From Phoronis australis (Eukaryota; Animalia; Phoronida), in the NCBI GenBank assembly GCA_002633005.1, contig NMRA01000327.1:19037-68917 (forward strand): a DNA stretch of 49,881 nucleotides. The letters are read 5' to 3'. Made by a program: the position numbers and the translations under genes. Shown piece by piece: positions 1,409-29,566 of the stretch. Each line of letters begins with the position of its first letter. Positions within the stretch are counted from its first letter, which is position 1. The notes under the pieces were generated by a model. The model ran no database searches, was not told the origin of the DNA, and saw only the letters and a list, made by a program, of their open reading frames with translations.

Positions 1409-1559
1409 ATGGCAGATGTTGTGAAGTCTAGTGGGGGGGAAATTGGCAAGGGTTGTGGTGATGATGACGATGACGATGATGTCATGGATGAAGAAGAAGA
1501 ATGTTGTGTAGCAGTGGTGGAGGAGGCCATGGTGTCAGCAGGGGCAAAGACGGAGAATG
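1409..1559 (+). CDS. NEK8/9-like exon 1 (acidic N-terminus [10 protein letters not shown]...[14 protein letters not shown])
   Basis: ATG 1409, donor GTAAGT at 1560, phase 1 matches next exon; start codon not certain. Confidence 0.6.
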
Positions 1560-7500: not shown

Positions 7501-10500
7501 GTGAACCATAGTTTAGCTGAATAATGTGAAGTTGATTGAATGAATGTGAAGCATAATTTACCTGAATAATGTGAAGTGCATCGAATGAATGTGAACCATA
7601 GTGTAGCTGAATAATGTGAAGTGCATTGAATGTGAACCATAGTTTAGATGAATAATATGAAGTACATTGAATGAATGTGAACCATAGTTTAGCTGAATAA
7701 TGGGCCAGAAGGTGTACTTTGATTTCCTTGATGATTTGATCAGAAGCTCATTTCTGTGCTCTCTTTTCAGAGATCTGAAGACAGCAAACATATTTTTAAC
7801 TAAAGATGGCATTGTTAAAGTGGGAGACTTTGGTATTGCCAAAATGCTGACCACTGCCAACAAGGGTGCCAACACTGTCCTTGGGACACCATATTACATC
7901 AGTCCTGAGATGGTATGTCTTGATGTTTTGTGTTAAATACAGTCACAAGAAACATGCTTTTATTGAGAGAGGCAGAAAGCCTTCATGCCTGGCCAGTATT
8001 TTATGTATGTCTGCACATATTTTAGTGAATACTTTGTCTTTTGGTGGCTGTTGAGCATTCAAATAAAATCTAGATCTATGTTTAGTAAGTTGAGTCATTT
8101 GATAAGTAAACATGTTGCTTACATTCTAGTCTTATTTCAAATTCCATTTGATTGCAGTGTGAGGGAAAAGCTTATAATGACAAGTCGGATGTTTGGGCTC
8201 TGGGGTGTATAATGTATGAAATGGCATGCCTTCAGAAGACGTTTGAAGGCTCTAACCTGCCAGCACTTGTCAACAAAATCATGAAGGTAAGGCAGTGTCT
8301 CATATTTACAGGATGATTTTCCAGCCTTCCATCTCGTTGGTTAAACTTTCAATTTCTGCTTGTCGTTAGTGTTTTGAAGGCAATTAAAAGTGTCTTCTGT
8401 GATTAATGTTTCTGGGATTCCGTCAAAATTTCTGTCATAATTTAACCCGGATCTTGCATAGTTATCGTTCTTTGTATGCAGGGCCAGTTTGCTCCAGTGA
8501 AGGGGAACTATAGGTCAGAATTCAAGAACTTAATCAAAGACATGTTGGAGCGAGAACCTCAGTACAGGCCAACGGCTCATGAGCTGTGGAATAGGAGGTT
8601 ACCTGAGGTGAGCATGTCTCCTGTGAGATTAGCATGCTCAATGTGAGGTGAGCTTGTCCTGTGTGAGGCGAGCGTGTCCTGTGTGAGTTGAGTGTGTTTG
8701 GGATGAGGCAAGCGTGTCCTGTGGGAGATTAGCGTTTCAGTGTGAGATGAGTATGTCATGTGTGACGTTAGCGTGTCCAGTATGAGGTGAATGTGTCCAT
8801 TCCGCACAATGTTCAATTTGGTACTTTTTTGTCTGTATCGTTTAAGTATTCTCTTGATGTACAGTGATAACGTGTTGACATCCCAAAGAAAGTATAAAAG
8901 TGCTGTGAAATACTACTGTCTTAATCCTCGTCCAAAATCGCAAAAATGAATTGTTAACTTTGAATATTGTTGATTGAGTTGTCTTATCATCATCTAGCAA
9001 TTGTGCATATTTCCTTATGTCACCACTGCCTTACATAATTTTGCTTTAATCCCTAAGTTAATTTCAGAATCTAGTCTCAGCTGATTTCGATTTTTCTTTA
9101 CATCTAATGCAAATGATCCACAGAGAGCAATGTGGAATATGCACTTCGATTACATTAGGTTACACAACAAGGTACCATGTTGTCATTAAAGTGCTTAAAA
9201 CCACGATTAACCTCGACTACATTGTCATCATCATTAAACCTCCTTTATAGCACTGCATATTACAATCCTGAATTCAATATTCCAAAATGAGAGAATAGAA
9301 GAAAAGCACTTCAGCAGAAAATTTCTAAGCTCCACAAACATGAGTGTGTTATATGACTACCCAGCACCAGTGTGTCCTGTCTATCAACACGCAAATTTAT
9401 TGTACAAACGTGTGCCTTATCCGTGCTTCTCTGATGTCCCGCAGGAAAATGAAAAGAGCCACAACATGGTCAAATACCAAGTTGTCATGACAACCACAAA
9501 TGCAACACCTTGGCTTTTCTTGTTGTACCATGAATTATGAGAAAATGAGCAACAATATCTGTCGACTTTTCACACTTAACGAAATGGAGTATGGCTAGTG
9601 CTGTGTTTGGTTGTCCTGCTTTCATGTAGTATGCTTTGACCAATAAGTACTTGGTAACTCAAGATTACTGTCAGATAATGTTAGCAGCAGATCGACTTCT
9701 GGGTTTGACATGAAATTGGTGATTTTAAACACTTTTAAGGCTTTTGAAATACTTGAAATTAATCTTTTCAGTTGTGAAATGCGTAAGTTAGTTAGTTAAT
9801 AAAGTCCCCATAACTTACATTGTAAAACTGCGTGGAATATTTGTGTTTCAGCTGCTGCTTAAGTATAATGATCCGCACACAGACAATGAAGATGACCTGG
9901 CCAGCTCTACTGATGGTAATCAAGTCAGGAAGAAAATAAGGTAGATATGGATTAACTTGAAGACGTGTCGGACAGAATAGAGGCTTGCTTGCTTATTAAC
10001 TTGTAAAACACTGTCGGGATGTGTTATTGATCCCAAAACTGCTGGTGGAGTAAGGCCTTCCCGGGTTATACAGTGACATTATTTTAAATTTTGCTGTATT
10101 TACCCACAATGCTGCAACATCCGTCAGGCACTTTGTAGCCCCGTTTTTGTGCCATTGAAGGTCATTTCTTTGTTATTGTCATATTCTTTACATTGCCAAG
10201 TTTTTCTTGGCTGGATTAATCTATTTGCCCTTCCAGTGCCATTGAAATATTACCGCTGTGTGTTGCATTGCAATTTCTGGTGGCAGACAGTTGGATAAAC
10301 TCGACAAATCCATGGATGCGTGATGTTAACATTGCCTTCCTGACATCAATCAAAAAGTAGAAACTGCAGGGCGAGTGCATAAAGCAAGTTCATCGAGTTA
10401 ATTTTGAACTTAACAGATTCTTCTTTCTTGGAGATACCTTTTTAATTCCTGAACTTTTGATGGGTTGAAATCGGAAATTTTCCATGGCCATATACCTTGA

Positions 10501-13500
10501 CGGTTTGTGACACGACCTATGGAAATGTTCCTGACATTCCAAAATGAGTTCAACGAAAGCAATACGCTTCTTTACCTACAGGACAAAGAAGAGTTTTATT
10601 GCTGTGTAATCCGGGTTGGCCTTGTTCTTCCCCAATACCTCGTGAAGAAACAACTTCTTCATTGCGACTGGATTTTGTTTTAACGTGGTAGAAAAATGGA
10701 AAAGTTAACTGATTAATGTAGTTGGTTAAAATATTAATACTTCGTCAAAACTGTAGTTAGAACTCTGTTACAATAAACTTCGCCAGACCTGTCTAAATCA
10801 TTAGTTGTAACAGAGGTTCGCTGTAATCAAATCAACCTTTTAGAGAAAATAGTATTCATGGTTGACTGTAAAGTTGGTGAAGTTACACATTGGCACATAG
10901 AAACAGTTTAAAGCTGTTGTGCAGTACAAAAAATTGGAATTTATTGTGGAATGGAACATTACAAGCCAGCAAATGGTAGCTTGCTACTGCTTTGTTTTTC
11001 AAGGAACTACATGAGGCAGATCTGAGTGTGATAAAGTCATTGGTCTAAAATAATGAACAGGTATTCTCTTTGGTGTTTAAAGTATTTATTGGCTTATGTA
11101 CTGTGTTACAGCCAACATAAACTTCACTTCTATTTTCATTTCTGCATGATCGTATGATTTATCTTTCAATTTCAGAATATGTGCTGTGTTACTTGGATTG
11201 TCTTGAATTATTTTGCACTTCCAGATCTGTTCTTTATTACCTGGAGACAGATGATGTCAATCTCATGCCTATTGAGCTTCCACCAAAGATCAAAATTAGA
11301 CAGGTACAAGTCTATGTAATGTGATATCTTTTAAGTAAGTTCTGTTAGGTTGCTGATGACTTAGTTTATTCATAGAGTTTGTTTGGTTCAGAGTTTTAGT
11401 GTCATTGTCACTTTTCTTACACACAGTGTATAATTTAAAAAGTAATTGTATCTTTTAATTAGGATTCCTTATAAAATTAACACTCTCTGAAGTTGAATAT
11501 TTTTCAGATGTTCTAAACTTAGAAAATTAGACTTACCGTATTCGCCCTAATAAGCACCCAGGTTGTTTAGAAAAATTCGCTTCAGGAAGGGGGCACTTAT
11601 TATAGCCCAAAAGTGGTTGAAACCCGGTCTCCGAAACAGGAAAAATTGTAAGTTATAATTCATCAAATTTGCGCTCTGTGACGCATCTGTAACCTATGAC
11701 AGAGTTTCTACAAAATTGCAGTGCAATGCTATCAAACTTTTTTATTAAATTACGAGAATTTTTCAGAAAATCCCAGTGCAAAAACTCACCGACTGATGTG
11801 TGGCTGCCTCATGATCGCCGATAGATCAACTTGAATTTTTGAGTAAAAGTTTTGACTCCTCCTTAAGTTTTCAAAATAGTGTCCCTAAGACTTTTAAGTT
11901 CCTGTGGAGTCGGGATTAACTGCACATTAAGTCCAAATCTGCTCTAGATCATACTCCGCAACATGAGAAAAATCTCTGGATGAACACACATGTTGTTGTC
12001 ACGTGATGTTTGTTTTGAGGGTTGTCTGCGTATTGTGTGAGTGAGTGAGCACGTGCGTGTCATCAGAGTTCATTTACCAGAGTAAACACGATATAACGAT
12101 CTAGGTGTGCATTGTAGCTCAGGAAATGAACTCAAGTAATAAAGCAGAATGTTTTAATTATCACTTGTTGGTCTCATCTGCTAAAAAACGTCAGAGAATT
12201 TTACTCGGTAAGATCGATGTCTTTGAGTCGCCTGATGACTGGATGCATGACAGTCTAACAGTTATTTTCGGGAGATTCAGTGGGTGTTAGGGTGTGGAAG
12301 TGTTCACTATCAGTGGGTCATTTTGACTTCGTTTTTTACGGTATTAGAAACTTTTGGGAATAATTGCCAGTATTTATTTCTTGCTGATGCTATGCTACCC
12401 GTTTCATGAATAGATAGTTCCCGAAGACTAATCTTCGATGACAAAAACTTGAATGTAGCATGCGCTTCCTGGCCACGTGCTTTTAACTGAACAAAAATCA
12501 AGTTTTTATTAGTCTTTGATTTTTGGTTTTCACGTGTAGAAAGAAACTTGGATTCCTGTTGAGGGAGAAGATCCGGTATGGGAAAGATACAATACAATCC
12601 CTTTGACATGTACGTTGCATCTGTTCTGAAAGGCCAGACCAGACTATAATAGGTCACGTCCCTCGCAAGATCAGCAAAACTTCCGTTCATTTTGAAGCAC
12701 GGTGGAAGTTTGAAGTGTATAGTCATGGCTAAATACCAACATAGCGGCGAGGCTCGTGGTCTACAAATTCTGCACACAATGATTTTTTCAGGACTGTCGA
12801 ATCTTATTGATAAATGTTACTGTAGATAGGCATTTTTCACATGTACATGGTGTTCATTGACTGGGGGCTTATTTTAGCAAAGTCTGAAAATGTGTGGGGA
12901 GCACTTATAGGGGCATGGGCGCTTATTAGGGCGAATACAGTAAGTGATTCTTTAAAAGGCAAATTTACTTTGAATTTGGATATTATGCAGCGTTGTTTTT
13001 TGCAGGTTGCTATAAGCAATGACCACACAATTGTCGTGACCAATGAGCGATCAGTATATAGCTGGGGTGAAGGGTCAAAAGGTCAACTAGGACATGGAGA
13101 TCTTGAACCTCGTTACAATCCTCAGCTTGTGGAGGCATTGAATGGCAAATCCATTACAAAGTGAGCATCTCATGGTGTATGATCATTTTAGAGCTGCCGT
13201 GTTGCCTACCCAACCCTTATAATTCATTGATTAGAAAACTGGGAACATTCTTAAGATTGCTGAGACCAGCCTGGTATATTTCCTAAGTGTCACACGGCCT
13301 ACAGTACATGTTAAATATTATTGACAGAGTTGCTGTCATGGTGACTGAGTAAAAAAGAAATGTAAGAGGAATTGGCATGACCTTCTGTGATAGACAAATG
13401 GAATTTTGTTTGACCATTTCTGGTGTATTCTGTACAGACTGTTCACTAAAAAATCTCTTCATCTCGGTAGGTATAGTGTCTTACAGACTACTGTTTGACC

Positions 13501-16500
13501 ATAGTATAAGCTAATCACATGTGTGTGGTAATGAAAATGACCCAGAATTCCCTTTCTCTTGTGCAGTGATAATTTCCTGTTCTTCCAGAGCCTGTTGTGG
13601 AGATGGGTTCAGTTTGTTCTCCAGTGACAATGGCATAGTGATGACCTGTGGTGATGGCACAAAGGGGTGCTTGGGTCATGGTGACTGGTGTTCTACTGCC
13701 AGACCTAGACTGATTGAGGCATTATTGAGGTATGTGTAGGTACAAAGAGCTGCTTGGGTCATGTGACTGGTGTTCAACTGTCAGTGTTCAACTACCTGAC
13801 GTGTTCAACTGTCAGTGTTCAACTGTCAGTGTTCAACTGTCAGTGTTCAACTGTCAGTGTTCAACTGTCAGTGTTCAACTGTCAGTGTTCAACTACCAGT
13901 GTTCAACTGCTAGACCTAGACTGGTTGAGGCATTGAAGACATGTGTTGGTCTAATGAGTCACCTGTTCCTTGAAAGTGATCATATTCACAATACTGTTAC
14001 CTGAGTTCTGAACGAAGTATAAAAGTTTGGACAAAATGACAGAATGATATTTTACAATTGGCTTTTGTTGAAGATGGGACTTGATCAATTGTAAAAAATT
14101 GTATTTTAAGTTGAATTTTGAGCAAAATATGGTTTATTTTATTGATTGTCTAGAGTGTTAAGAAAAACCATTAACTGAAAACATATACATGTTTAGTCTT
14201 TGTTCATTTCTTGTTGTGTAATGGTTTATTTTTAGCCTATATTTTGCTTCATTTGGCAATTTGGTATTTTCCACAAAAAGTCAACAGTTTTACTTTTGCG
14301 TTCTGCACACTTGGCTATGTCAAGGTGGCTGAATTCATTAGTACCCGTTAATCATTGCAGTGTTGATGTCTCAGCTGTGGACTGTGGAAAGGAACATGTT
14401 GTCATCGTGGGTAGTCAGGGACAGGTGTATTCTTGGGGACAAGGTGCTGCCGGGCGACTGGGGCATGGAAATGAGGAAGACTGGTGAGTGGGGGAGAAGT
14501 TGGTTCAAATTCCACTAGGTGGTACTGCTGTAGTCTGGAGTAAAGTGTCTGTTCTCTGTTTGTATGATAAGTGTGACTCCTGCCTCAGAACACATGAAAG
14601 TTATAGCTTGGGAAGCCCTCTTTAAAAATCTCTTCAGCAATAGGAAGGCAATTTTGGAATTTAATACAGAAAGTTGTTGTTCCTAATTTTACCAGGTAAC
14701 GTTATTGCCTGGTTGTAATTCTTTGATTGCTTCTGTGGCATATATTTATCGTCACAACTAATTCTAGGTTACTGTTCACACTTCTTGTGTTTATTGTTAT
14801 CCCTGTGTGGCTTTAAATTATTTGTATCAAATTTAGATTTGTGAAGACCATCATGTTTCAAAAATCTTACAATAGGTAGAAACTTTGCCATCTGATTTTT
14901 AGCCAAGAGCTCTTTTTCAGTGTATTTTTGTTCTAAGGCACTGCTCGTTTTTTGTCCTGCTTGATGTGTTGAGAATTATGGATAGTGGCATTTGTGGTTA
15001 AATTTGATATTGTATTGCCTTGTCATCAGCTGTGAACCCAAGGAGGTGGTAATATCAGAACCAGTGAAGATCCGTGATGTGTGTTGTGGTGATGATGGTA
15101 CTATGGTACTAACTGATGTGGGCAGCTTGCTGGCCTTTGGCAGTAACCAAGACAACAAGCTGGGACTAAACCACAGGCAAGGGTTCCTTATGGCCATGAA
15201 GAATATCTTCAACAAGGTAACACTTGCTGACTTTCATTTACCTTTTTACAGTATTTCAACATGTAACTATGCTTAGTGAGTTGTGAAATACTCAATTATG
15301 TAATTGCANATATTTTAAAACAAAATAGTCAAAGATGACTGTCTAATTTATTAAATTTTTCATCTTGACAGTTTAGGAAATATGGACATTTTTCACCTCC
15401 ACAGTTTCTGAAATAAAGATGTTTTTCATCTTTACTACCTCTGAAATAAGGACACTTTTCATTTTTGACAGCCTCTGAAATAGACATTTTTCATCTTAGC
15501 CACTTTTGAAATAAAGCATTTTCCAACTAGAACAACCGTAACATCTCCTTGACCTAAAAAGTTCAATTGAATGTCACATTTCTTGCAAACATTTTAAGTC
15601 TTGTCAGCACGTCATCTGTTGGCCACATCACATGACCTAATGAATATAAGTCTGAAAAGATTTCTGCCCCGCATCAGGACGTGATGTGGCCAACAGATGG
15701 CGTGCAACATAGATCTTCAATGCCATATTGAGATTGACATATTCATGTCACATTTCTTAGTTTTGTAAGTGTGATGTTTTCTTAAACAAATGAGTAAAAT
15801 AAATTATCCATTGACTAATAGAAGACCAGAATATTGTCATCACAATACAATCACAGTACAGATGGGTTTATTTTCTGGCTCTGATTTACAATAAGTTCTG
15901 ACTGTTAGATACCAATTTTGACTAGACTTTCATTTGTGTGGTAATTTATGAAACAATCCGTGAAACCTCTTAATCTCATATCATTAGTAAAATATTTTAA
16001 TGTTTGCAATATATGTCAATACTTTGAGGAAGCTTGAAACAATGACAGTAAATTTCTTATTATTTCTGGAATCTGTGCAAATGAAAAAGTGTACTCATAA
16101 GTATATAAAAAGAGTAAAGGGGAGAGAGAAACTATACTGGATACATCACTTTGCATTTTGGTCCAGGAACCCTGAGATGATCCTATTGCCACATAATCTG
16201 GTGGTTTTTGCCTTTGACTGTTGAGAAGTTAGAATAAGAGTGCAATAACACTCACTATTTGCTAACTAAAGATAATTTGATGTTTCTTGATGCACGCAAT
16301 ACATGTTTACATTTTAGAATGAGGTGGAGGGAGCCAAGTCTCCTTGTGTTGTGCGTGCTATGGCCCGCCACTGTGTCACTTCCATCTCCATGGCATCCAC
16401 GCACAGTGCCGTGCTCGTGGAGTCTGGTCACGTGTACACATTTGGACGGAACACGGAGGGACAGCTGGGCACAGGCAATAACAAAGCTCAGAATGCACCG

Positions 16501-19500
16501 ATAGAGGTGAAGACTCTCAGTGATAAAATAGTGTTGGTAAGTGTGCAAGCAATCTCATCAAACTGTTTATAGAAACCGAGTAAGTTGTTATGATTTAATG
16601 TAATTGAAAGCTAGTCATAATACTTCTGTAATCAATTCTTCATGTTTAATGCTGCTTTGTTTTGAAAATTAATGAACTTGACTTTTAAAGTTATCATGTT
16701 AACACTGAAATTTTAATCCAAATCCATCTAACTATGTGTGACATGTGTCTTTCAAGAGAGTTCAGTGTACTGACACATTCACTGTAGTCAGCACTAAAGA
16801 GGGTGAGCTCATGTTCTGGGGCACCTTGTACAAATCTCACACGACCAACAGTGCCACTGACGATTCTCACAAGACCTCGGACACCTCTGCACAGAGTGCC
16901 CCTGTTCAGCATGTCCAACAACGCTCCAGCACGTCCAGTATTAGTAGTCTCAATAACAGTGGCGGTCACAAGGAAAAGCCGGGTTCAGCCAGCAGCACAT
17001 CAAGACAGTCCAGTAAGTGTCAAGTCCTTCCAATCAGTCCTTGTTTGGCCAGTGGTTTTGCTTGAACCATCTTTGTTGCTGTCAGCCAGAATGTAGTTTT
17101 TGCGAACATCAAATATGACAAGGGAGATCATCGGTAATGTGTGGAAACTGTGTACCTTTTGTTGCAGGTACAATTGAGTGGGATTAATGGAATGTTTGGA
17201 GGTCTGAGAAATCTCATCCATAGCCTACCATTCAACAAGCTTCACGTTCTGACAGTCTGTTGTATTCTTTAGGTCAGGCTTTGAACAAATTGTTGGTAAA
17301 CATGGATCATAAAAGTCACGATGATTTTTAACACACATATGCATCACCACTTTATAGTTTTAATGCTTACCAAAATCTTTTTAATGAGATGTATCCATAT
17401 TTTACTAGATTCTGTGTCAGTATGTTATCTTCCTTTTCTTGTGTCTGGCTACATCATATTTGTGCGGTGTGCACTGTCTTGTGTGACACTTGCTCATTAT
17501 TACATTATTGTATTATCATGTCTCCACAGACTTTATGCCCGAGATGCAGAATGAGACAGTGACTGGTGAGCACAGAGTGCATGACCGACAGGCCAGTGTG
17601 GACAGTAATGTAAGCTCAGCATCTGGTGGTGCCTTGGACACCAGTCAGTCATCCAAGTATCATGGCTTCAGGCCTTCAAGTAAGTGAACTTCACATTGGT
17701 CTGTAGCATGTGTCTCCTAATCACATGACAGGGTAAATTTGATTTTTTGTTGTTAGTAGTTCTGCTGTGTTTGATTAGTGCAATGTTAATTCATAGGGAT
17801 TCTGTGAATAGACCTATGGCCAGGATTTTGAGTGACAGCTTAACTGACCAATCAGAAAGCAGAATTCTTGACACACCTTCATTTCCAAGCTGCCATTTTA
17901 CTTGACAAACATCTTGTTGTCGGATAAAATTTTTTCTTGTTTGTCGACTTTTGGAAGGGGTCGGAGCTTGCGATAGGTCAGTTGCTCCATTATGATAAAA
18001 ACTTGCTCCACCAGTGATATCAAACACAGTCTTCATGTCTTTGTTATCGAAGGAGGGGGGCATTTTCCAAGTCAAATTGACCTGTCAGACAGTCTGTTCC
18101 ATTTAATTTGATTAAAATGAACCTGCTGCTTTCTCATGAGTTCGCTTCATTTCCAAAAAAGGGCCTAATAGTATTTGAATCTTTATCTGGCAGGTTGTTT
18201 TGTCATTAAATACGTTTTGTTGTTAGTTAGCTTTCAATTTGTTACATCATTCCGAGCACAGTCTGAGTAAAAATAACAATACTAGATATTATGAAATTAA
18301 GCATAGGTTCCAGATTCAATGATAAAGACTACATGGTAAGTCCAAAAGCAGTTAATAGTAGCAGGCTGGTGTACATTATTACACACTAAATGCAGTGTTC
18401 AGACACCATACAGAACTGGAGTACACACTCAGACTCTATACAGAACTAGAGTACACGAAGACCATATAGAATTGCAGTACATAGACACCATGCAGAACTG
18501 GAGTACACACTCAGACTCTATACAGAACTAGAGTACACAAAGACCATATAGAATTGCAGTACATAGACACCACATAGAAGTGGAGTACACAGACGCCATG
18601 TAGAACTGGAATATAGACAGATTCCATTACGGAAACAGCCGAATTCCTGGGAAGCGCCATATTGAGGTCACGTCATTACAGGCATGTCATACTAAACGCT
18701 GTAGTCAGGCAAATGTCAGTAGTCTGTCTATAAAACAAGCCTTCTGAGTTGGTGTGCCTGCTTGTGTTTTGTATTTGGTAGCAGATCAGCTGATTTGAAA
18801 TCATTGATAGGGAATGAAACCTAAAGTCAGTACAAATCACACAATACTGCAAAGTATATGGTTGCAATTGCACCAAAAATGGGTACACCATGTACGTATC
18901 TAAAGCATTTGGGGGGCAGGTGTAGTGACAAATACATTGTTCAAAAATCTGGATTTCTGGAATACCTTTTACCCAAAGACACAGTTAAGACAGATAGAGG
19001 TTTTACTATTGGTGAACTCCTGTTTCCAAGACGAGTTAAGTTAAACATACCAGCTTTCACCAAAGGCAAGTCACACCTTAGTCAAAAAGATCCGACAAAA
19101 AACACAGCGCATTTCCACAGTAAGAATCCATATGGAGCGAGCAATATGGAGACTTAAAAGTTTTCAAAATTTTGAGTACCAGTATTCCAGTGTAAAGCAC
19201 AGAATCAGTGGATAACTACTTGATTTTCTGTGCTGGGCTTGTGAACCTACGTGCTGATCTGATCAGAGATCAAAATTTGTAAGACATGGACTAACTTCCA
19301 GAATTTTTATGTTGCCCATTCCAAGTGGTAACATGTACCGTTTCAATAAATATCTGAAAGTAAAATGTAAGCAATCGTGCAACAGTTTGCTCAACAAAGC
19401 TTTCACTGTGTAGCACATCTACGTCATAATAAAGTCATTGTCACGAACTTTAAAATTAGCGCGCACGTAAATAATTAAAGTTGGTGCTTCTGTTTTGGCC

Positions 19501-22500
19501 TATAACAAATGTGATCAAAGTCATTGTCAGTTGTGTACAGAACTAGTTTTTCCAGTACAAAACATGGTCGTTGATACTATTTTTTAAATGGACTGTTTGA
19601 TATGGGTATCACCAGGACAGTAATGCGGTGCAACTGAACTAAGTGACTCACGAAAACAATCTTAAGACCAGTTCCTAAGATTGTTTTCGTGAGTCACTAA
19701 GTTCAACTAATGGAAATCATAAGAAATTCATCACAATGTTGCAATATTAGGAAATGGTTATTTGGCCCTGGGATGTTTCTGTGAACACTGTGTCATCCTG
19801 TCTAGAACATGTGTGGATAGATTCCAGGGGACAGTTCAGTCTCAAGAAAGTAAACAAATCATAACAGTACATGACCAACGCTGGAGGAGATCCATTTGAA
19901 ATAATTAAAACCCAAGTTAGAATAATAAACAAACAACAAATTCATGTCAGATCACATATTTAATAAAACAGACCTTATACAACCCAGGAATACGACTTTG
20001 AATAGCTCACTACCATGCTGAACAGCTGTGCTGTTTTTGTTTTTAGCATTCCTGTAGTGGCTGACTTCGGTATGCGAAGCCTGTGGCTGTTTTGTAAAGT
20101 ATAGTATGAAGTTACACAATCTCTGTCTTTATAGACACTACATAGAACTGGAGTACACAGACACCGCATAGAACTGTTAGTATCCAGACATCTTATAGAA
20201 CTGTTTAATTGCAGGCAGCACTCCTAGACGTCCAAAGAGTTCTGAGGGTGGTAAAGATGATGGCGAGATACAGTTCTTCAAACCAAACACTTTGTTGATG
20301 TAAGTTTCTTTTAGTTCCAAAACCAAAAGTTATTTGTCAAAGGCAGATGTGTAACCGACACATCTTTGTATTAGGCTAGTGTTCAGAATGCACTAAGTTG
20401 ATTGTAATGTGTTATAAGCTATTAATCATTTCCAGATTGGTGTTTTTTGATGGATGTCAGCTGAGTATGTTTTGTTTGTATTCTTATCCATCTATGTGGA
20501 CATAGTCCAGCTGTGCAAAAACTAGAAGCCTGAACTATGCATATTTCTGAAGTCTACTTGTTTTGTTCTAATATTATTCAAATTCAAAACCCAAGTTCCA
20601 TAATGATTGCAGATGTATGTATGTTACAACATAAAAAGTTATGCAAGACATGCACTCAGGCTGTGAACGTGTCATATCTGTGAGATCTCTGTGGTCTAGT
20701 GTACTCAGGCTGTGAACATGTCACATTTGAGGTCTCTGTAGTCTAGGGTCTGTACAATATCACCAGACGCGTTCTTGTTGTTGACAGGATGGAGAAGGTT
20801 CAGGGAGAGGAGTCAATATCTCTGTCCAGTTTCTACTGCCACGGGACACATATCTTTGTACAGGTGGAGACGACCGCGCCCTTTGCCCCACCGCGCAGAC
20901 GAAGGAGTAGGAGAAAAGCATTCAGCAAGTAAGCAGGGGAGTGCGTGGTGACTGACTTCATTGTAAGTAGGGGGGTGACTGACTTGGCTGTGGGTGAGGG
21001 GTGACTGACATCATTGTAAGTAGGGGATGACTGACTTAGGTGTAAACAGACACTGGGTTTGTGTATTTTATGTGGTATGCTCCTTCCCCTTCCTGGAATG
21101 TTTGATTGTATTTTTATGAAAATATAGCCAAACCCCCCTTCATTTTCTGTACATCTTATCTAATGGGATTGTGTTTCATTACGAAGACTGCGCTCTAGGT
21201 TGAGCATGAATCAGATAGTTTTGATTTCTTACAGAAGTCAAAATGGGAGCCAGTTGGAAATACCCACTGCACCAACCAAGCTGAACTCGGCATCCAGTCG
21301 TGACGCTGGCAGTGAATACTCGTCAGATACGTCAGAGCTGGATACGTATGGAACTGTGAGTTGTTAGCAATAGTCTTACACTCTGATCTGTTAGCTGCAG
21401 TCTCCATGTTGGATTGGAATAATGTCAGTATGCTGTCAAAGGCAGTTCTTGTGGTTGCTGTGACATCTCAGAGTCATGTTTAGATTCTTTGTTTGAATAA
21501 TGTGCTTTGCTTGAAAATTGCTCAACAATTTTCAGTTGTGGAAGAACTACTTTTAATTTAAGATGATCATATGAAGTGTCTGTACCAGAAGTCTCTAATT
21601 CATGAATTCAGTTTTTGTTAAGAATGAAATTAAATATCAAATACCGTATAGTTTATGTCACATTTTAGGCTGACTCTTAAGTATTGCTTTCATTTTTGAA
21701 ACCATTGGCAGGAATACTAGAATCTAGGATCAATTGTTCATGCTTGGTTTTCTTTTCTGAAGATTCCAGCTTGGATCCAGCAGGAATTGTCTGCGGCGAA
21801 GGGGAGTCATGAACAGCCAATTGATGACGTCGATGGTCAGTCATCTGAGGAGGCAGAAGATGGTGCCACTAGACTGAATGAGTCATTCTCCAGTATTCAA
21901 CTCAACAGGGACCTCAAGAGGGTGGGACAAAAAGCAAAGCCAAAAATTAAAAAGGTAAATAATTTTAGTTGGCATACCTCTGTATGTAATTTTTATAATA
22001 AACTGAACAAAGATGAAAGAGACGATGTGAAAGTGATTGTTTTAGCATTTCTAGTCTGCTGTCGTCATTATTTTGTCCAAATGTTGACATTTGCTGATCC
22101 TCTTTTTCTTTACATGTTTCAAAAGTTGACAATGAATTACAAGATATCTCTCAATTCCACTCTCATTTGTTTGTTACTAGGCTTTACCACTCACATCAGA
22201 GAGTGGTGTTGAGTGCACTCCAGTTGAGGACCTGTCCAGTAGTAGCTTGGACAGTGAGATTGAGGAAATGTAAGTAGTCTGCTGTTAATGGCTTCATTTG
22301 TTGTTCACATTTATTGTCAGTTAAAATCTATTGTTTTGTAGATATTTAGCTAAGTACATAGACTTGTCGGTGATGTTCTACATAAAGTTAATAAAGTCAG
22401 AGTCCTAGTGTTGACTCAAAACCTAGATCTTTGGTGTAAATTAGCAGAGTCTCTTACCATACAATGTCGCTAACAATACATCAGTTCTGTTAAGTATTGC

Positions 22501-25500
22501 TAACAATACCTCAACACTGTTTCATACAAACATTGTTTTTATTAATATGCCAGAATTGTCCCAAAGAAGAGTGAAGAAGCACCAAATAAAAAACTGACCA
22601 CGATCCCAGCGGGCAGGAAGTTGACTGGCGCGTCACCATATAAGTCAAAGGTCATGCTTGGGGGAGGACAAACTCAAAAACCTCTGAACAGACTGCGGGC
22701 TCAGAACAAGGGGAGAGGCAGAGGGTGTGTAGTTTGTATCATAAATAGTATAGCTCATTCTTTGTGAAGAACTGTACTGTACTGTTCACAAATATTTTGT
22801 CGAATGAATAGTAATGAGGCATCATTGGCCAACTCGATGATGGTATGGAGTGACCAACAGCCCGGAAAAGAACTGATTGCACTTCAGATGTCCGGAGGTG
22901 TTCCCCAGCCAGCATGAAGATATATTCTGAAGCAGTCCGTCTGGCATGAGTTTTTTCTGTGCATGAATATTTGACAATGTGGATTATTTCTAATTTCCTG
23001 TTGAAGAGTCAATGTTTTCATTCACTAAGTTAACAGTTTTGTAAGAATCAGTGAATCTTATTTAGTGTAATATATTCATGTGAAATACCACGTTGACGTA
23101 AAAGAGCCAAATGAAGAAAGAAACTCCTGTGATAAAATGTCAATTTTGAAATTGATTGCCATGAAACGTTTCTGTTGAAACTTATTCTTTCAATGTTAGG
23201 TGTTGTTTTATTATACCCTTACTACAGTAAAATCTCATAAATTTAGGATTTAAAGCAGACAAGTGAAATATTATTGTATTTTCCAATTTTGTTCATAAGA
23301 TGTAGCATCAAATTAATGGTTTTCTGTATTCACTTTGTGTACCATAGCTACCACAATGTCAAGTTAAGCTATTCATTCTTTTTGTCCAAAGTTGGTGAGA
23401 TTGTATCACATTTGTCACGGCCGATTAGTGGGAATTGTTTTTCTAATGTTGCACATTTTGTGTTCACTGCTTGCTTCCTGTTGCAGCACTGAGCAGGTCC
23501 AATCAAACTCTAGAGAGTCTGACTCACCCGTCCCTCGAGGGTTACTTTCAGAGGTGACCCACAGGAGGAGAGAAGATGCCATTCAGGTAGACGGCGATGT
23601 TGCTTGTAATATGGAAGCTAATCTCGCTCTAAATCTTGCAATGTCTTCACCAGATGAAAAACTGAGAAGGGAATTCAAAGAAGACAAGATAGGGAGAAAG
23701 ATTTTTAAAAAAAATGAATTCTTAATGCAGTGACCTTTTTCATTATGTTCAGTCATTCTCATACAAGTTGCATTACTGTTTGTTTTTTTGTCTCGTTTGC
23801 TTGTGGTTCTGAGTACACAGTTATGTTAAATGAACTCCCAATGTCTCTGTTGTCATGCACTTTTTGTTGAAATTGGTTGAAAAATTAGTGCATTTAGTTC
23901 TTTAAGTAAATTCTAATGTTATAATTCCCTTGACAAGTCACACACTTCGTAAATATTTTCTAGTGTTGTAGCATTTTCACAATTTTGTTGTTAATCTCTC
24001 AGTCCTTTTCCTCAGCTGTTCGCCATAACATTACAGTAACTATAATTGTACATTTTTGTTCGCATGTTCATTAGGTGTTTATTTTTTAGTTCAGAGCTCT
24101 AGTTGCAGAAGCTGATGCATTACTGATTTACTCACTTTGTTGTTTGTCTGGCATTTCAGCAAGAGCTGGAGAGGTTAAAAGCTGAGAAGGCAGAAGCTGA
24201 TCAGAAAATCAAAGACATGCAGCGCCAGCAACAACAGCAGGCTGAAATCATTAGGAGGGATGCAGAGATTAAAGCCAAGGTTAGGTGGTCATGGTGATCT
24301 CCTTGATAATCTTCATTTTGTTTGTTCAGCCTGAATGTCTACTTAAAGGAATGAGCCAAAAGTAATGGGACAGAATGTCCCAGAATTCCCTATTGTGAAA
24401 GCTTCCTGCCATTGTGTCCGTGCATCATGACCAACAATAAAAGGGGGGATTTAACGGAATGTTTACAAGTTGGAGATGTTTGTTATGTAGCAAGTCTCTG
24501 CTAATCGTTTTTGCTGTTTTATGTTTGGTGTGTGTTTCAGGTTATTGTATTTCAGTGGCATAATACACTTGATAACTCATATGACCAATTGTTGTATTTG
24601 TTTTAGGAAAGAGAACAACAGTTGGAGAAGGAAGTACTACAATTGAGAACTGAGCTGTTACAGCAAAGTAACAAGATGCAGGATAACTACAATGTTGTCA
24701 TTGACCTGCAGGTAAATACTAGTAAGGTCGAACATGTCATTGACCTGCAGGTAAATACCAGTCAGGTGGAACATGTCATTGACCTGCAAGTTCATACTGG
24801 TCAAATAGGCCAAGTGGAACCTTGGGTTGGTATTCGCCTTAAGTCAAGTTGGTGAAATGAATATATATATATATATATATATTAGTAGTTTCTGATTTAC
24901 TTCATATGTAAGATTTACTGTAAGGATTGAATGTTTTATAAAGTACTTGACAGTCAAAAATTTTTTTTGTTAATTGAGCTCACCATATGCATTGTTTCCT
25001 TTCTAATTTTTACTTTTGTCTAATAAATGAAATTGCGTAAAGAGATGTTATCGATTTCATGTCCAGAAATGCATTTTTGGGATTGTTGGATGAAGCAGAC
25101 TTCTTGGTTATTAGCATTGACCAGAGCATTGACCATAACCTTAAAACAACAACAAAATCCGTACGGTTGTGTTTTCGTGATTTTATTACAAATTGCCAAT
25201 TCTCATCGTTGTCTGCCAGACATTCATTGAAATCAAGGCAGGTGAGTGTAATAGTTACTGTTAACTATTGAGTCAGGTTTAAATCGACTCGTGGACTGTG
25301 GCCACAGAATTTGCAGTTTCGATTTCACGCTAAGGCTGATCTCTGTTGATAAGGTCCTTTTTATGAGTAGAAAATTACTGTATTGAATTTAACTGGACTT
25401 TTGATAAATTGTTTTTAGCTACTGCAGACATGATAATGTTTAAAGTATTGAGATTTGAACTGTTGAGCATGAGCAAAATCTGCTGAGGAGAATGAACAGT

Positions 25501-25700
25501 ATCTGGTCTTCAAGAAATTCTGTTGTCTTTAGTTGCCAATTCCAAGCACATTTAACAGTTAAAAGCATGGTTTCTTGCAGGAACAGTTGCTTGAATTAAA
25601 ACAAGAGCAACTGCGAATCAACGCCAGGGAGCAACGAGCTAAAAGTGCCAAGTCTCAGCAGTCGGTTCAGAAGGACAGTAAAATATGCGTACTCTCATGA
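1409..25700 (+). CDS. NEK8/NEK9-family Ser/Thr kinase gene (29 coding exons, 4140 nt CDS, ~1379 aa): DUF4347-like domain + kinase + RCC1 repeats + coiled coil + CaaX
   Basis: All introns GT-AG with consistent phases, and summed exon length is divisible by 3. Kinase motifs [43 protein letters not shown]1 motifs VYSWGxGxxGQLGHG. The N-lobe resembles NEK9 ([14 protein letters not shown]) and the C-lobe resembles NEK8 ([21 protein letters not shown]), so the exact orthologue is not assigned. An upstream exon is possible (acceptor at ~1399). Confidence 0.92.
2043..2192 (+). CDS. NEK8/9-like exon 2 (DUF4347-like, [11 protein letters not shown]...)
   Basis: ttttgcAG acceptor, GTGTGT donor, phase 1-1. 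Confidence 0.8.
2719..3076 (+). CDS. NEK8/9-like exon 3 (DUF4347-like)
   Basis: ctttacAG acceptor, GTGAGT donor, open 119-codon frame. Confidence 0.85.
3770..3870 (+). CDS. NEK8/9-like exon 4 (start of kinase, FEKIRTVGK)
   Basis: tttccAG / GTACTA, phase 2-1. Confidence 0.9.
4501..4616 (+). CDS. NEK8/9-like exon 5 ([24 protein letters not shown])
   Basis: Gly-rich loop and catalytic Lys; cttcAG / GTAAGA. Confidence 0.95.
4780..5700 (-). mobile_element. Degenerate Helentron/HINE-like element with ~150-bp internal repeats
   Basis: Reverse complement of 5640-5700 resembles 40995-41060 (ataagagcaa...tgcaccgca.atg); recurring ccctgttggc motif; boundaries approximate. Confidence 0.45.
6029..6132 (+). 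CDS. NEK8/9-like exon 6 ([19 protein letters not shown]...MEYADG)
   Basis: Kinase subdomains IV-V; ttttcAG / GTAATC. Confidence 0.95.
6988..7107 (+). CDS. NEK8/9-like exon 7 (NLAQFL...IHEHNILH)
   Basis: Kinase subdomain VIa; tttcAG / GTAAAG. Confidence 0.95.
7175..7701. repeat. 45-bp minisatellite, ~12 copies (NEK intron 7)
   Basis: Unit ttgaatgaatgtgaaccatagtttagctgaataatgtgaagtaca. Confidence 0.95.
7771..7912 (+). CDS. NEK8/9-like exon 8 (RDLKTANIF...DFG...[10 protein letters not shown])
   Basis: Catalytic and activation loops; ttttcAG / GTATGT. Confidence 0.97.
8158..8286 (+). CDS. NEK8/9-like exon 9 ([17 protein letters not shown])
   Basis: Kinase subdomain IX; ttgcAG / GTAAGG. Confidence 0.96.
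8482..8607 (+). CDS. NEK8/9-like exon 10 (GQFAPVKG...[11 protein letters not shown])
   Basis: Kinase subdomain XI; atgcAG / GTGAGC. Confidence 0.93.
8605..8798. repeat. ~20-bp degenerate minisatellite starting at the exon-10 donor
   Basis: Unit gaggtgagcgtgtcctgtgt, ~9-10 copies. Confidence 0.85.
9852..9940 (+). CDS. NEK8/9-like exon 11 (linker)
   Basis: tttcAG / GTAGAT, phase 0-2 bridges neighbours. Confidence 0.8.
10051..10623. mobile_element. Degenerate foldback/MITE-like element
   Basis: Imperfect inverted repeat aaggccttcccgggttatacag vs ctgtgtaatccgggttggcctt; true ends unclear. Confidence 0.4.
11225..11303 (+). CDS. NEK8/9-like exon 12 (RSVLYY...LPPKIKIRQ)
   Basis: cttccAG / GTACAA, phase 2-0; start of RCC1 region. 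Confidence 0.85.
11536..12940. mobile_element. Non-autonomous Tc1/mariner-pogo-type DNA transposon (TA TSD, ~25-bp TIRs) carrying a decayed HIRAN-like ORF
   Basis: ta|CCGTATTCGCCCTAATAAGCACCCA ... TGGGCGCTTATTAGGGCGAATACAG|ta. Confidence 0.85.
12525..12793 (+). pseudogene. Decayed HIRAN-like domain ORF inside transposon
   Basis: Across a stop and frameshifts: [62 protein letters not shown]. Confidence 0.65.
13006..13160 (+). CDS. NEK8/9-like exon 13 (RCC1 repeat)
   Basis: [16 protein letters not shown]; tttgcAG / GTGAGC. Confidence 0.95.
13589..13729 (+). CDS. NEK8/9-like exon 14 (RCC1 repeat)
   Basis: ACCGDGFS...GCLGHGD; ttccAG / GTATGT. Confidence 0.95.
13740..13944 (+). repeat. Degenerate duplicate of the 3' part of NEK exon 14 with internal 14-bp expansion (gtgttcaactgtca x ~10)
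   Basis: acaaagagctgcttgggtcat..gactggtgttc and actgctagacctagactggttgaggcatt mirror 13660-13725. Confidence 0.9.
14361..14483 (+). CDS. NEK8/9-like exon 15 (RCC1 repeat)
   Basis: VDCGKEH...[15 protein letters not shown]; ttgcAG / GTGAGT. Confidence 0.95.
15030..15216 (+). CDS. NEK8/9-like exon 16 (RCC1 repeat)
   Basis: VCCGDDGT...[12 protein letters not shown]; catcAG / GTAACA. Confidence 0.93.
15355..15520. repeat. Degenerate ~33-bp minisatellite, ~5 copies
   Basis: Recurring atttttcatct...ctgaaataa. Confidence 0.6.
15607..15705. repeat. Inverted repeat (25-bp arms, ~49-bp spacer), MITE remnant
   Basis: gcacgtcatctgttggccacatcac / gtgatgtggccaacagatggcgtgc. Confidence 0.75.
16318..16536 (+). 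CDS. NEK8/9-like exon 17 (RCC1 repeat)
   Basis: [25 protein letters not shown]; ttttAG / GTAAGT. Confidence 0.95.
16757..17012 (+). CDS. NEK8/9-like exon 18 (RCC1 end + Ser-rich linker)
   Basis: [10 protein letters not shown]...ELMFWG; ttcaAG / GTAAGT. Confidence 0.88.
17530..17679 (+). CDS. NEK8/9-like exon 19
   Basis: ccacAG / GTAAGT, phase 1-1 (skippable in frame). Confidence 0.75.
18398..18614. repeat. ~26-30-bp minisatellite with a higher-order duplication; continues at 20131-20203
   Basis: Unit agacaccatacagaactggagtacac; split by a transposon insertion. Confidence 0.88.
18825..19282 (+). pseudogene. Frameshifted DDE_Tnp_4 (ISL2EU/Harbinger-type) transposase C-terminal fragment
   Basis: [59 protein letters not shown]../[12 protein letters not shown]. 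Confidence 0.88.
19636..19704. repeat. Near-perfect hairpin (31-bp arms, 7-nt loop)
   Basis: gaactaagtgactcacgaaaacaatcttaag / cctaagattgttttcgtgagtcactaagttc. Confidence 0.9.
20215..20299 (+). CDS. NEK8/9-like exon 20
   Basis: ttgcAG / GTAAGT, phase 1-2. Confidence 0.78.
20788..20928 (+). CDS. NEK8/9-like exon 21 ([10 protein letters not shown]...RRRRSRRK)
   Basis: tgacAG / GTAAGC, phase 2-2; basic cluster. Confidence 0.82.
20929..21045. repeat. Degenerate ~27-34-bp repeat starting at the exon-21 donor
   Basis: gtaagYagggg..gtgactgacttcatt repeated; extra GTAAGT at 20963 and 21016. Confidence 0.8.
21235..21355 (+). CDS. NEK8/9-like exon 22
   Basis: cttacAG / GTGAGT, phase 2-0. Confidence 0.82.
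21763..21954 (+). CDS. NEK8/9-like exon 23 (IPAWIQQEL motif)
   Basis: ttctgaAG / GTAAAT, phase 0-0. Confidence 0.8.
22181..22269 (+). CDS. NEK8/9-like exon 24
   Basis: ttactAG / GTAAGT, phase 0-2. Confidence 0.75.
22554..22724 (+). CDS. NEK8/9-like exon 25
   Basis: tgccAG / GTGTGT, phase 2-2; donor less certain. Confidence 0.68.
23487..23586 (+). CDS. NEK8/9-like exon 26 ([18 protein letters not shown])
   Basis: gttgcAG / GTAGAC, phase 2-0. Confidence 0.78.
24160..24279 (+). CDS. NEK8/9-like exon 27 (coiled coil)
   Basis: [21 protein letters not shown]; tttcAG / GTTAGG. Confidence 0.85.
24607..24711 (+). CDS. NEK8/9-like exon 28 (coiled coil)
   Basis: [17 protein letters not shown]; ttttAG / GTAAAT; duplicate in-frame donor at 24751. 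Confidence 0.85.
24696..24791. repeat. 39-bp tandem repeat spanning the exon-28 donor (~2.5 copies)
   Basis: tgtcattgacctgcaggtaaatac repeated at 39-bp spacing. Confidence 0.9.
24861..24882. repeat. (AT)n microsatellite
   Basis: atatatat run. Confidence 0.9.
25581..25700 (+). CDS. NEK8/9-like terminal exon 29 (coiled coil, ...[10 protein letters not shown])
   Basis: cttgcAG acceptor, phase 0, TGA at 25698-25700; ends in CaaX. Confidence 0.85.
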   Translation, partial: EQLLELKQEQLRINAREQRAKSAKSQQSVQKDSKICVLS

Positions 25701-27861
25701 CATATTGCAGCACTGCATTGCTTGGTGCTGAGAAGAACAATAATATCATTGCAGTCTTTATGCAATGGAACAACAGATAATCAAAACTGTGGATCTAATC
25801 AAATTAACATTTTTGCAACTACAATAAAGAGAATTACTGGTTAAAAAGTTAATGAATCTCATTTTGACTTAAACTACATTGTGGTATACAATGGATGAGT
25901 AATTATATTACTTTGCACTATTTTTTTAACCCTAGCATTTTAGCTATATGTTTGAGTCTGAACTCAAAATCTCAAGTTTTGCTCAAATTTGAAACTCGAA
26001 TGAAGAGTTAGCAAGTGCCACCTTGGACTAGAAACGCATATGCTTAAATAATACACGGAATAATGGATACTTATCTTGATTCCATACGTTTGTAGAACGG
26101 GAAATGTCGAAGATCATTTCAAATTCGATTTCAAGCTCAAACATTGGACACAAGCCCTGGTGTTTTACATTAGTCTCTGTCAGGTTGCTTATTAAACAAT
26201 GTGTAGTTTTGCCAGCACATAGGTGAAACAAGACTTCTGATGAGACTCATTTGTTACAATTTCAGTTATTGCATGTTTTTGTTATGATTGATTGATTGAC
26301 TGGTTTCATTGGTCAACATGTACAATGCAGGAGGTTAAAAAATGTCATTGTGACATAACACAAAAGTCCAAAACCATTTAAACAGATTGAAATGATTAAG
26401 ACATCATACTGTGAAAGATTCACACAGAAAAAAATAAATATCTGCAGTGAGCCTGGGAAAAACTGTATGAGAAATAATTGACGTGGGCTTGATTGGTTGG
26501 CTTAATATTACATTTTAGTAAATGATTGGTTCTTTAATCAAGAGAAATGTGTGTGGTGCTTTAGACTTAATCATTTTACACCATGGGTGCATGGCTGCCA
26601 AAAACAGTTTGTAAAGTTTTGAAATGTAATAGTGAGTACAAATTAAATTTTGTGGTCATGCAAGTTTCAGACTTTCCTTCCACTTTCTTGTTTCAGGGTA
26701 GGTGCACTAGTGTGTTGTTTAACAGCTAGCCACTAAGTGTGCACAAGTTTTGTGATATGTTTACAAACTGATGTTTAATGATTCAGTTTATATGAGATTC
26801 ATAATTGGGTGATTTGATGTTGTCATGGTGATGACAAAAGAATTGTGATTTTTCTACTTTATGGCAAGTGCTTGGACTTGAAATTTGCGTTGTAGCTATT
26901 GTTACGTTTTAAAAAACGAGTTAGTTGAAATACTATCAGTTGAAACTAGAAGATAAAGAGAGAAGAATTCATCTCAAATTTTATTTGTAGTGTCAGATTT
27001 TCTCAAGAGTTAGCTGTGGAGCTGCAGCCTGTAGTGATCGTTTTACAGTTTATGATTATTGGAATACCTGTTATCTGTTCTCCAGAACAGTGCAAATGCA
27101 AGTGAGTGCTTGTTTTTATTGGGTCAGTTTCACTCTGTTCTGAATGACCAGCAGCCCACAATGTGATATGGCCAGTTGTCTGTAAAAAGGTCAATGTGTA
27201 GTAAGCTGCAATGTCTGTCCACATATTTGCCATATGTCGCAAAATAGCATTTTCCTTCGATGGTAACCTAATAATTGTTTACTGCATTGGTGTTATACAA
27301 GTTCATTGCAATGTTACATGATTTATTCTTGTGCATGTTTTTAAAGTTTGTCACTGTTGATTACACTGAATAAGTTACAAGTTTCTACTAATAAGTTTTT
27401 TTTTTATTGTAAACCAGTAACCAGCATAATGAAAAATGACACTTCAACAAATTATATCTCAGTAAACTTGTAAATAATCCAAGCTCATAAATATGAAGCC
27501 TATAATTAAGAAATTATATTACTTTCCAAATTCAATTGAGAAAGCATTACACATTTGAAATGTGAAATATAATAAACAAGCCGTGGCAATATAGTCTATA
27601 GTGATTGCATAGCCAATATCTATGCATACAACTTGTTTGAAGATAACACACACAAAAACATTTTTTAATTATAATCTGAAATTCACTGTTCTGCCATCTT
27701 GTGTTCTAAATTGAAGACACTTAACTCAGGCTTGGAATTTCACTCCAACCGGTAATTTAATTGCTTACTTAAGTGTAATTAAATTGGCTATAATCCCATC
27801 TGTCAACAGTTAACTTCTTCAGGAACGTGTTTACCGGTATATCTGCTTTAACAATCTTATG

Positions 27862-29407: not shown

Positions 29408-29566
29408 TCAAATGTTGGAGATGGGGAGATCTTGATTGATACAGTAAGCTGGGAAAGTGCCTTGTCTCAGGGTGTCCCTGTCCAGGTGTCCCACCAAATA
29501 GCCTGGGGCAGAACTCCTGCCTGTTACCTTGACAATGTCGCCCCTGTGTAGAGTCAGGTTCTCAGA
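29408..29566 (-). CDS. PSTPIP1: PSTPIP-like terminal exon 13 (SH3)
   Basis: SENLTLHRGDIVKV...GTFPAYCI; ttttcAG, TGA at 29410-29408. Confidence 0.87.
   Translation of the reverse strand, partial: SENLTLHRGDIVKVTGRSSAPGYLVGHLDRDTLRQGTFPAYCINQDLPISNI

Follow-up and report, generated by a model that had tools for sequence, protein, structure and literature searches.

The 49,881-nucleotide stretch of Phoronis australis DNA analysed here (the window; contig NMRA01000327.1) encodes on its plus strand a protein that, by its domains and motifs, is a NIMA-related (NEK) kinase, and whose last coding exon, at 25581-25700, ends in S-K-I-C-V-L-S-stop. This CaaX tail is genuine, is expressed and shows deep conservation. 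In phylogenetic trees the protein falls in a third, ancient NEK8/9-like subfamily that is neither NEK8 nor NEK9. The spliced end is read as a tail that is predicted to be farnesylated and that likely makes the kinase a high-affinity cargo of PDE6D bound for cilia, a reading given a rough probability of 0.58. Such a lipid-anchored third NEK subfamily has apparently gone unrecognised so far. Statements on the literature refer to the openly available parts of the papers cited.

The exon follows directly on a ttgcag acceptor and comprises 39 codons and then TGA, with Ser(-3) at 25677-25679, Ile(-1) at 25683-25685 and the cysteine at 25686-25688 (Ser(-3) and other flanking positions are counted back from the cysteine, Cys(-4) from the C-terminus). 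Translation bears out the ending that an earlier, sequence-only reading of this DNA had described. Its 24711-25581 junction, with GT..AG borders, was seen in seven reads when three RNA runs of the same species and one contig set (X1-X4) were compared with the locus (X1 1, X2 6, X3 0, X4 0). No competing joint from donor 24711 occurred among the nine joints listed with at least three reads, and read depth on the expected strand extended past the stop to ~27400. As a control for chance, the stop-terminated frame ends in all six frames of the window were screened: a loose CaaX was found at 31 of 3680, and the full S-x-hydrophobic-C-x-aliphatic-X pattern at one, namely exon 25581-25700. A CaaX in which X is serine, glutamine or methionine and a2 is aliphatic fits the usual pattern for farnesyltransferase, and H-Ras ends in CVLS; the tail combines Cys(-4), an aliphatic a2 and X = Ser at the true C-terminus. 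Its S-K-I-C also carries the Ser(-3) and hydrophobic(-1) residues of high-affinity PDE6D cargo, a cargo rule that the sequence-only reading had stated in agreement with PMC5512577.

The query for homologues was a crustacean orthologue cut to residues 1-900, so that the tail had no role in their selection; the counts cover the best 120 of 205 matches, whose rows are related and not independent draws. Cys(-4) was kept in 96 of the 120, and Ser(-3) in 91 of these 96. Merging identical 12-residue tails left 83, of which 78 had Ser(-3), 66 K/R(-2), 76 V/I/M/L(-1) and 74 both Ser(-3) and a hydrophobic(-1), so that the conservation which the sequence-only reading had made decisive was indeed found. 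The a2 residue was aliphatic in 83 of 83, and X was Q in 47, M in 22, S in 12, N in 1 and L in 1. Entropy was 0.44 bit at -3 versus about 3-3.6 bit at -4 to -8, where residues are near-random (Ser 19%). Tail-bearing rows span cnidarians, an acoel, protostomes, ambulacrarians, amphioxus, tunicates and sharks; the closest homologues among the matches listed, Lingula and Owenia, showed 54% identity.

The 24 rows lacking Cys(-4) include seven insects, two amphipods with another end in common, a record marked partial that is one residue short, and a short isoform whose gene keeps the tail in its other isoforms. Four more retain the coiled-coil region and end otherwise, and these are presumed to be gene-model errors. 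The coiled coil and CaaX were apparently lost independently in amphipods (P0014, P0015) and insects (P0021, P0023, P0038, P0049), the insect members ending just past the docking motif described below. Outside animals, tails of the same kind are carried by filasterean, choanoflagellate and Chromosphaera relatives (Pigoraptor SSVCTLM, Barroeca SSFCTIS, Chromosphaera SSTCTIL), so that the tail probably goes back as far as Holozoa.

The gene was modelled as 29 exons from 1409 to 25700, with all joins GT..AG and one open frame of 1379 amino acids (aa). RNA supports 15 of the 28 modelled junctions and 3 more are not among the joints shown; the RNA comparison began at ~9600, and 10 of the 28 lie upstream of that point. 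The domain order is an acidic N-terminus, a DUF4347-type domain, the NEK kinase, RCC1 repeats, a Ser-rich linker, a P-x-W-I-x-x-E-L motif, a likely coiled coil and the CaaX; the sequence-only reading had mentioned neither the N-terminal DUF4347 domain nor the NEK9-type docking motif. The features are as follows.

1409..1559, plus strand: first coding exon of the model, acidic, with an assumed ATG; an acceptor at 1400 points to another exon upstream (model).
2043..3076, plus strand: DUF4347-type domain in two exons, 2043-2192 and 2719-3076 (homologue comparison).
3770..8607, plus strand: NEK kinase domain exons, model aa ~245-495 (model, Pfam, motifs).
11225..16800, plus strand: RCC1-like repeat exons, model aa ~530-855 (Pfam RCC1 match on 5 of 5 exons scanned).
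16757..23586, plus strand: Ser-rich linker exons, with a conserved block at 20788-20928 (RNA joints, model).
21763..21954, plus strand: exon with the P-x-W-I-x-x-E-L motif, model aa 1083-1090 (match to the core of the NEK6/7-docking site of NEK9).
24160..24711, plus strand: likely coiled coil in two exons, 24160-24279 and 24607-24711, running on into the last exon (RNA joints, sequence composition).
24712..25580, plus strand: last intron, GT..AG (7 junction reads).
25581..25700, plus strand: last coding exon, with the S(-3)-K-I(-1)-C-V-L-S-stop CaaX end (translation and an RNA joint into the exon).
25701..27400, plus strand: 3' untranslated region, end approximate (stranded read depth).

Several introns of this gene start with tandem copies of the preceding exon end or splice donor (24702-24790, 13750-13935, 8610-8800 and 7160-7700), the 24711 donor region, for example, being repeated twice. 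RNA joints from such copied donors were absent among the joints listed with at least three reads.

The kinase domain matched Pfam Pkinase and is intact, with G-loop, catalytic Lys, alphaC Glu, HRD, DFG and the end of the activation segment, and the best PDB match of the Lingula orthologue was NEK1 (E 3e-73). At the N-terminus, the window's own DUF4347 exons gave no Pfam match; the domain is called because orthologues pass the PF14252 cut-off, as did 4 of the 5 scanned (Lingula, Owenia, Nematostella and Macrobrachium; not listed for Heterodontus), and homologues annotated with DUF4347 share 48% identity with exon 2719-3076. For the Lingula domain, AlphaFold gave a confident model with an alpha/beta fold (pLDDT 94.3), whose sole structural match with Z of at least 8 was the Hcp3-Tce1 entry 9qpe_G (Z 11.1, root-mean-square deviation 3.6, 150 aligned); Foldseek with the same model returned generic alpha/beta matches only. 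A coiled coil before the tail is likely: the sequence is rich in E, Q, K and L, and Pfam gave a weak coiled-coil match (E 0.0025).

In the NEK6/7-binding site of NEK9, P809, W811, L812, L816, F821 and I822 are essential (PMC4632185). The window protein matches four of these six positions, the equivalents of F821/I822 being absent. The docking core was found in the window protein, in 110 of the 120 homologues and in 5 of 6 NEK9 rows, versus 0 of 7 rows of the NEK8 clade, and several nematode rows keep a similar distal hydrophobic pair. As the core is present but the distal pair is missing, docking of NEK6/7 by the window protein is no stronger than plausible.

Placement was examined with an unrooted tree of the kinase and RCC1 regions (LG+G4, 34 chosen rows, 613 columns); NEK8-type, NEK9-type and distant rows came from a search of 50%-identity representatives, and 20 of these were looked up for names; a kinase-only tree in quick mode served as a pointer. 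NEK8 and NEK9 each formed a clade with support 100/100 and grouped with one another at 100/98. A separate animal clade with support 91/99, with a sponge, cnidarians, sharks, arthropods and nematodes (Pristionchus nekl-1 among them) as members, held the window protein among its lophotrochozoans (89/98), so that the protein shares one clade with the source-named nekl-1 and the DUF4347/CaaX animal proteins. Approximately unbiased (AU) tests, on groups named after the tree had been seen, rejected nematode NEKL-1 with NEK9 (p 8.7e-5). They likewise rejected the window protein as a NEK8 orthologue (p 5.1e-5) and as a NEK9 orthologue (p 2.7e-5); it lies outside both clades, and the trait shared with NEK8 is a kinase followed by RCC1. 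Two paralogues also occur side by side in single species, Heterodontus having NEK9 and a third-clade protein, and Apostichopus NEK8 and a third-clade protein. The earlier label of a NEK8/9-family kinase with a tail thus stands for the kinase-RCC1 NEK architecture, which Pfam and the gene model uphold, and falls for identity with NEK8 or NEK9, since trees and AU tests point to a separate ancient paralogue. Proteins of Pigoraptor, Chromosphaera and Barroeca sit between the animal clade and NEK8+NEK9, that of Pigoraptor having 70% kinase identity and a DUF4347-like match.

A shark query returned 283 matches, of which the best 120 consisted of 17 cartilaginous-fish rows followed by invertebrates; no named bony vertebrate or lamprey was among these 120, and loss of the gene in bony vertebrates appears likely. 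A Bactrocera RCC1-NEK grouped with insects of the third clade on a long branch. As Nek2 and Niki are the only NEKs of Drosophila (PMC5716973) and the Bactrocera protein falls in this clade, Niki is probably a tail-less member of it. The grouping of NEKL-1 and Niki draws on the sequences of Pristionchus, C. bovis, Plectus and Bactrocera.

These results can be joined in a wider account, tentative and on balance unlikely, in which the lipid-tailed protein would be the ancestral holozoan NEK8/9 form, a PDE6D-delivered kinase of the ciliary membrane that also docks and activates NEK6/7. After duplication, NEK8 (ciliary, inversin-recruited) and NEK9 (a cytosolic NEK6/7 activator) would have split these jobs and dropped the lipid, and bony vertebrates would have lost the original gene, which would explain its absence from the 11-member mammalian NEK catalogue; worm NEKL-1 would be a living representative. 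On this unrooted tree, the word "ancestral" and a loss of the tail by NEK8/9 are conjecture. The shark (Heterodontus) NEK9, P0202, ends GSFCQIE, with Cys(-4), Phe(-1), Ile at a2 and X = Glu, possibly a decayed CaaX; this would fit the loss by NEK9 of an ancestral tail, and the other five NEK9 rows have no such ending. A separate kinase+RCC1 family of 1450-1830 aa (P0209, P0222, P0226, P0242 and similar), ending ...LFC with a terminal Cys, formed a well-supported clade in the kinase-only quick tree.

For the tail itself, the following course is proposed. Prenylation is very probable: by standard CaaX processing, farnesyltransferase would modify Cys1376 (X = Ser), the last three residues would be clipped and the Cys methylated. 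The basic patch is mild (net +3 in the preceding 15 residues), and PDE6D would probably carry the lipidated tail, with Ser(-3) and Ile(-1) giving tight binding. On PDE6D, Ser(-3) forms a hydrogen bond with Glu88, Ile(-1) sits in a hydrophobic pocket, and a swap of these residues reverses the affinity (INPP5E(KS) 697 nM vs Rheb(SI) 12 nM; PMC5512577). In the same study, tight cargo was released by ARL3 only and a weak mutant showed no ciliary enrichment; the constrained positions of the tail are the ones that governed PDE6D affinity and sorting to cilia there. If the tight cargo is freed only by ARL3-GTP, the kinase would be enriched at the ciliary membrane, a step that is somewhat favoured. 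At the cilium, the coiled coil might dimerise the kinase and P-x-W-I-x-x-E-L might dock a NEK6/7-type kinase as in NEK9, which is conceivable but falls short of probable.

Several observations weigh against ciliary delivery or against parts of this course. Insect members have no tail, though insects have sensory cilia. In nematode tails, X is Leu in most and Cys in some, and position -1 is often occupied by Thr or Ala. Position -2 is constrained as well (K/R in 66 of 83 tails), so that the pattern may serve the prenyltransferase or membrane binding instead. The distal pair F821/I822, essential for NEK7 binding, is missing from the window protein, and both positions are hydrophobic in only 6 of the 110 core-motif homologues. 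C. elegans Y39G10AR.3, which we take to be nekl-1, appears in a table of co-expression with ciliary genes (p 4.5e-5, R 0.986), passing the 1e-4 cut and lying outside the top 276 and cluster 1. The worm expression data on a ciliary role are equivocal, and looking for the name nekl-1 in 12 of the 14 supplements of PMC10393296, where identifiers may differ, gave no match. Ser(-3) is neither sufficient nor necessary: in PMC9857354, it was present in 12 of 25 prenylated PDE6D binders, NIM1K and UBL3 remained ciliary with S>K mutations, and FAM219A, a PDE6D binder with Ser(-3), went undetected inside cilia.

These PMC9857354 results, the X = Leu of most nematode tails and a nekl-1 co-expression that is only moderate also favour a different use of the same prenylated subfamily, in which the lipid would anchor the kinase at non-ciliary membranes (cell cortex, endosomes, periciliary membrane), where the kinase would control trafficking or the cytoskeleton from a position upstream of NEK6/7, PDE6D being only a general shuttle. 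NEKL-2 and NEKL-3 do work in endocytosis in the worm epidermis (PMC5897031, PMC10166553). Generic prenylation, however, needs no Ser(-3), yet this residue persists in 78 of 83 tails and across three unicellular holozoan lineages, and NEK8 is ciliary (PMC2031824); anchoring elsewhere is a real possibility, though the less likely one. Delivery to cilia is the preferred reading, and two further explanations fare far worse. That the protein is a plain invertebrate orthologue of NEK8 or NEK9, with the tail a lineage-specific add-on, agrees with source names such as "Nek8-like" or "Nek9-like", with reviews that pair NEKL-1 with Nek9 (PMC5716973) or NEK8 (PMC4577287), and with the docking core common to it and NEK9. 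It is already largely refuted and very improbable, as the AU tests reject all three such groupings, the genes co-occur in Heterodontus and Apostichopus, and the tail ranges from unicellular holozoans to sharks. A CaaX arising as a chance ending, or from a minor or mis-predicted exon, draws on the shallow junction support, on the tail-less fifth of the homologues (24 of 120) and on intron retention, which would yield a different end; at this low RNA depth a minor intron-retaining form is possible. Set against the single full match among 3680 frame ends and a Cys kept in 96 of 120, with a partial record, a short isoform and seven insects among the exceptions, this explanation is already refuted by conservation and hardly credible.

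The open literature searched gave no description of a NEK with a CaaX or of a third NEK8/9-like clade, though subscription papers and supplements may hold one. The ESM Atlas gave only automatically named kinase-RCC1 clusters. In the NEK phylogeny of PMC2031824, there is one Nek8/9 subfamily, and "prenyl", "RCC1" and "niki" never occur in the available text; NEKL-1 was called uncharacterised in 2014 (PMC4263411). A Nematostella "NEK8/9-like" gene, ao18 (JGI 89190), is expressed in the ciliated apical organ (PMC4300403); it could belong to the third subfamily or be a true NEK9, is not tied to either and was not used as evidence. The suggestion that the module might be undescribed agrees with these searches as regards a CaaX-bearing NEK and is weakened in that a prenylated, PDE6D-carried ciliary kinase is precedented by NIM1K (PMC9857354); with GRK1 as well, such a kinase is not new in itself. 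The placement bears on standing orthology calls, which it would correct: worm NEKL-1 and probably fly Niki serve as NEK8/NEK9 stand-ins in reviews of cilia and mitosis, yet group with the third paralogue. It makes nekl-1, a little-studied gene in a model animal, a precise test of tail function. The ~80 natural tails form a series for reading the PDE6D sorting code, and the placement gives an approach to the division of ciliary and mitotic roles between NEK8 and NEK9.

Elsewhere in the window, an expressed gene on the minus strand (~27500-47750) converges on the kinase gene; it contains an F-BAR/FCH piece at 46231-46494 (E 0.0025) and an SH3 piece at 29411-29644 (E 2e-6), and looks PSTPIP-like. 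Inside one of its introns lies a broken reverse transcriptase of long interspersed nuclear element (LINE) type on the plus strand (32243-33900; Pfam RVT_1, E 6e-21). A DDE_Tnp_4 (Harbinger-like) transposase remnant, also on the plus strand (18700-19300; E 4e-14), lies within the long intron 17680-20214 of the kinase gene.

Among known systems, the tail resembles INPP5E and GRK1 in having Ser(-3) and a hydrophobic(-1) before the prenylated Cys (PMC5512577), and NIM1K, a prenylated ciliary kinase with Ser(-3) (PMC9857354); RPGR is likewise targeted to cilia by prenylation and PDE6D. None of these four is a NEK, and binding and localisation, which have been shown for them, are predictions for the window protein. 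The RCC1 domain of RPGR was not among the best 60 PDB matches of the Lingula orthologue, so that no special kinship with RPGR was seen. With DUF4347 (PF14252) proteins, the orthologues share the N-terminal domain, here placed before a NEK kinase, an arrangement of which no description was apparent in the open literature. NEK8 (NPHP9) has the kinase and RCC1 and is ciliary, in the inversin compartment (PMC4263411); it differs in forming a separate clade, in its length of about 700 aa without docking motif, DUF4347 or CaaX, and in being recruited to the cilium through inversin, not lipid. NEK9 (Nercc1) is closer in layout, with kinase, RCC1, an unstructured linker with a P-x-W-L-x-x-E-L core and a coiled coil (PMC4632185), but it too forms a separate clade, and its six rows have neither a DUF4347 match nor a canonical CaaX. 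The insect members, by inference including Niki, differ in having neither coiled coil nor tail. The nematode NEKL-1 proteins differ in that their tails mostly end in Leu, the geranylgeranyl type by the standard rule; Pristionchus nekl-1 (P0196, ending ESRACCIL), C. bovis and Plectus nevertheless lie inside the animal clade and have the kinase, RCC1 and docking motif in common with the window protein.

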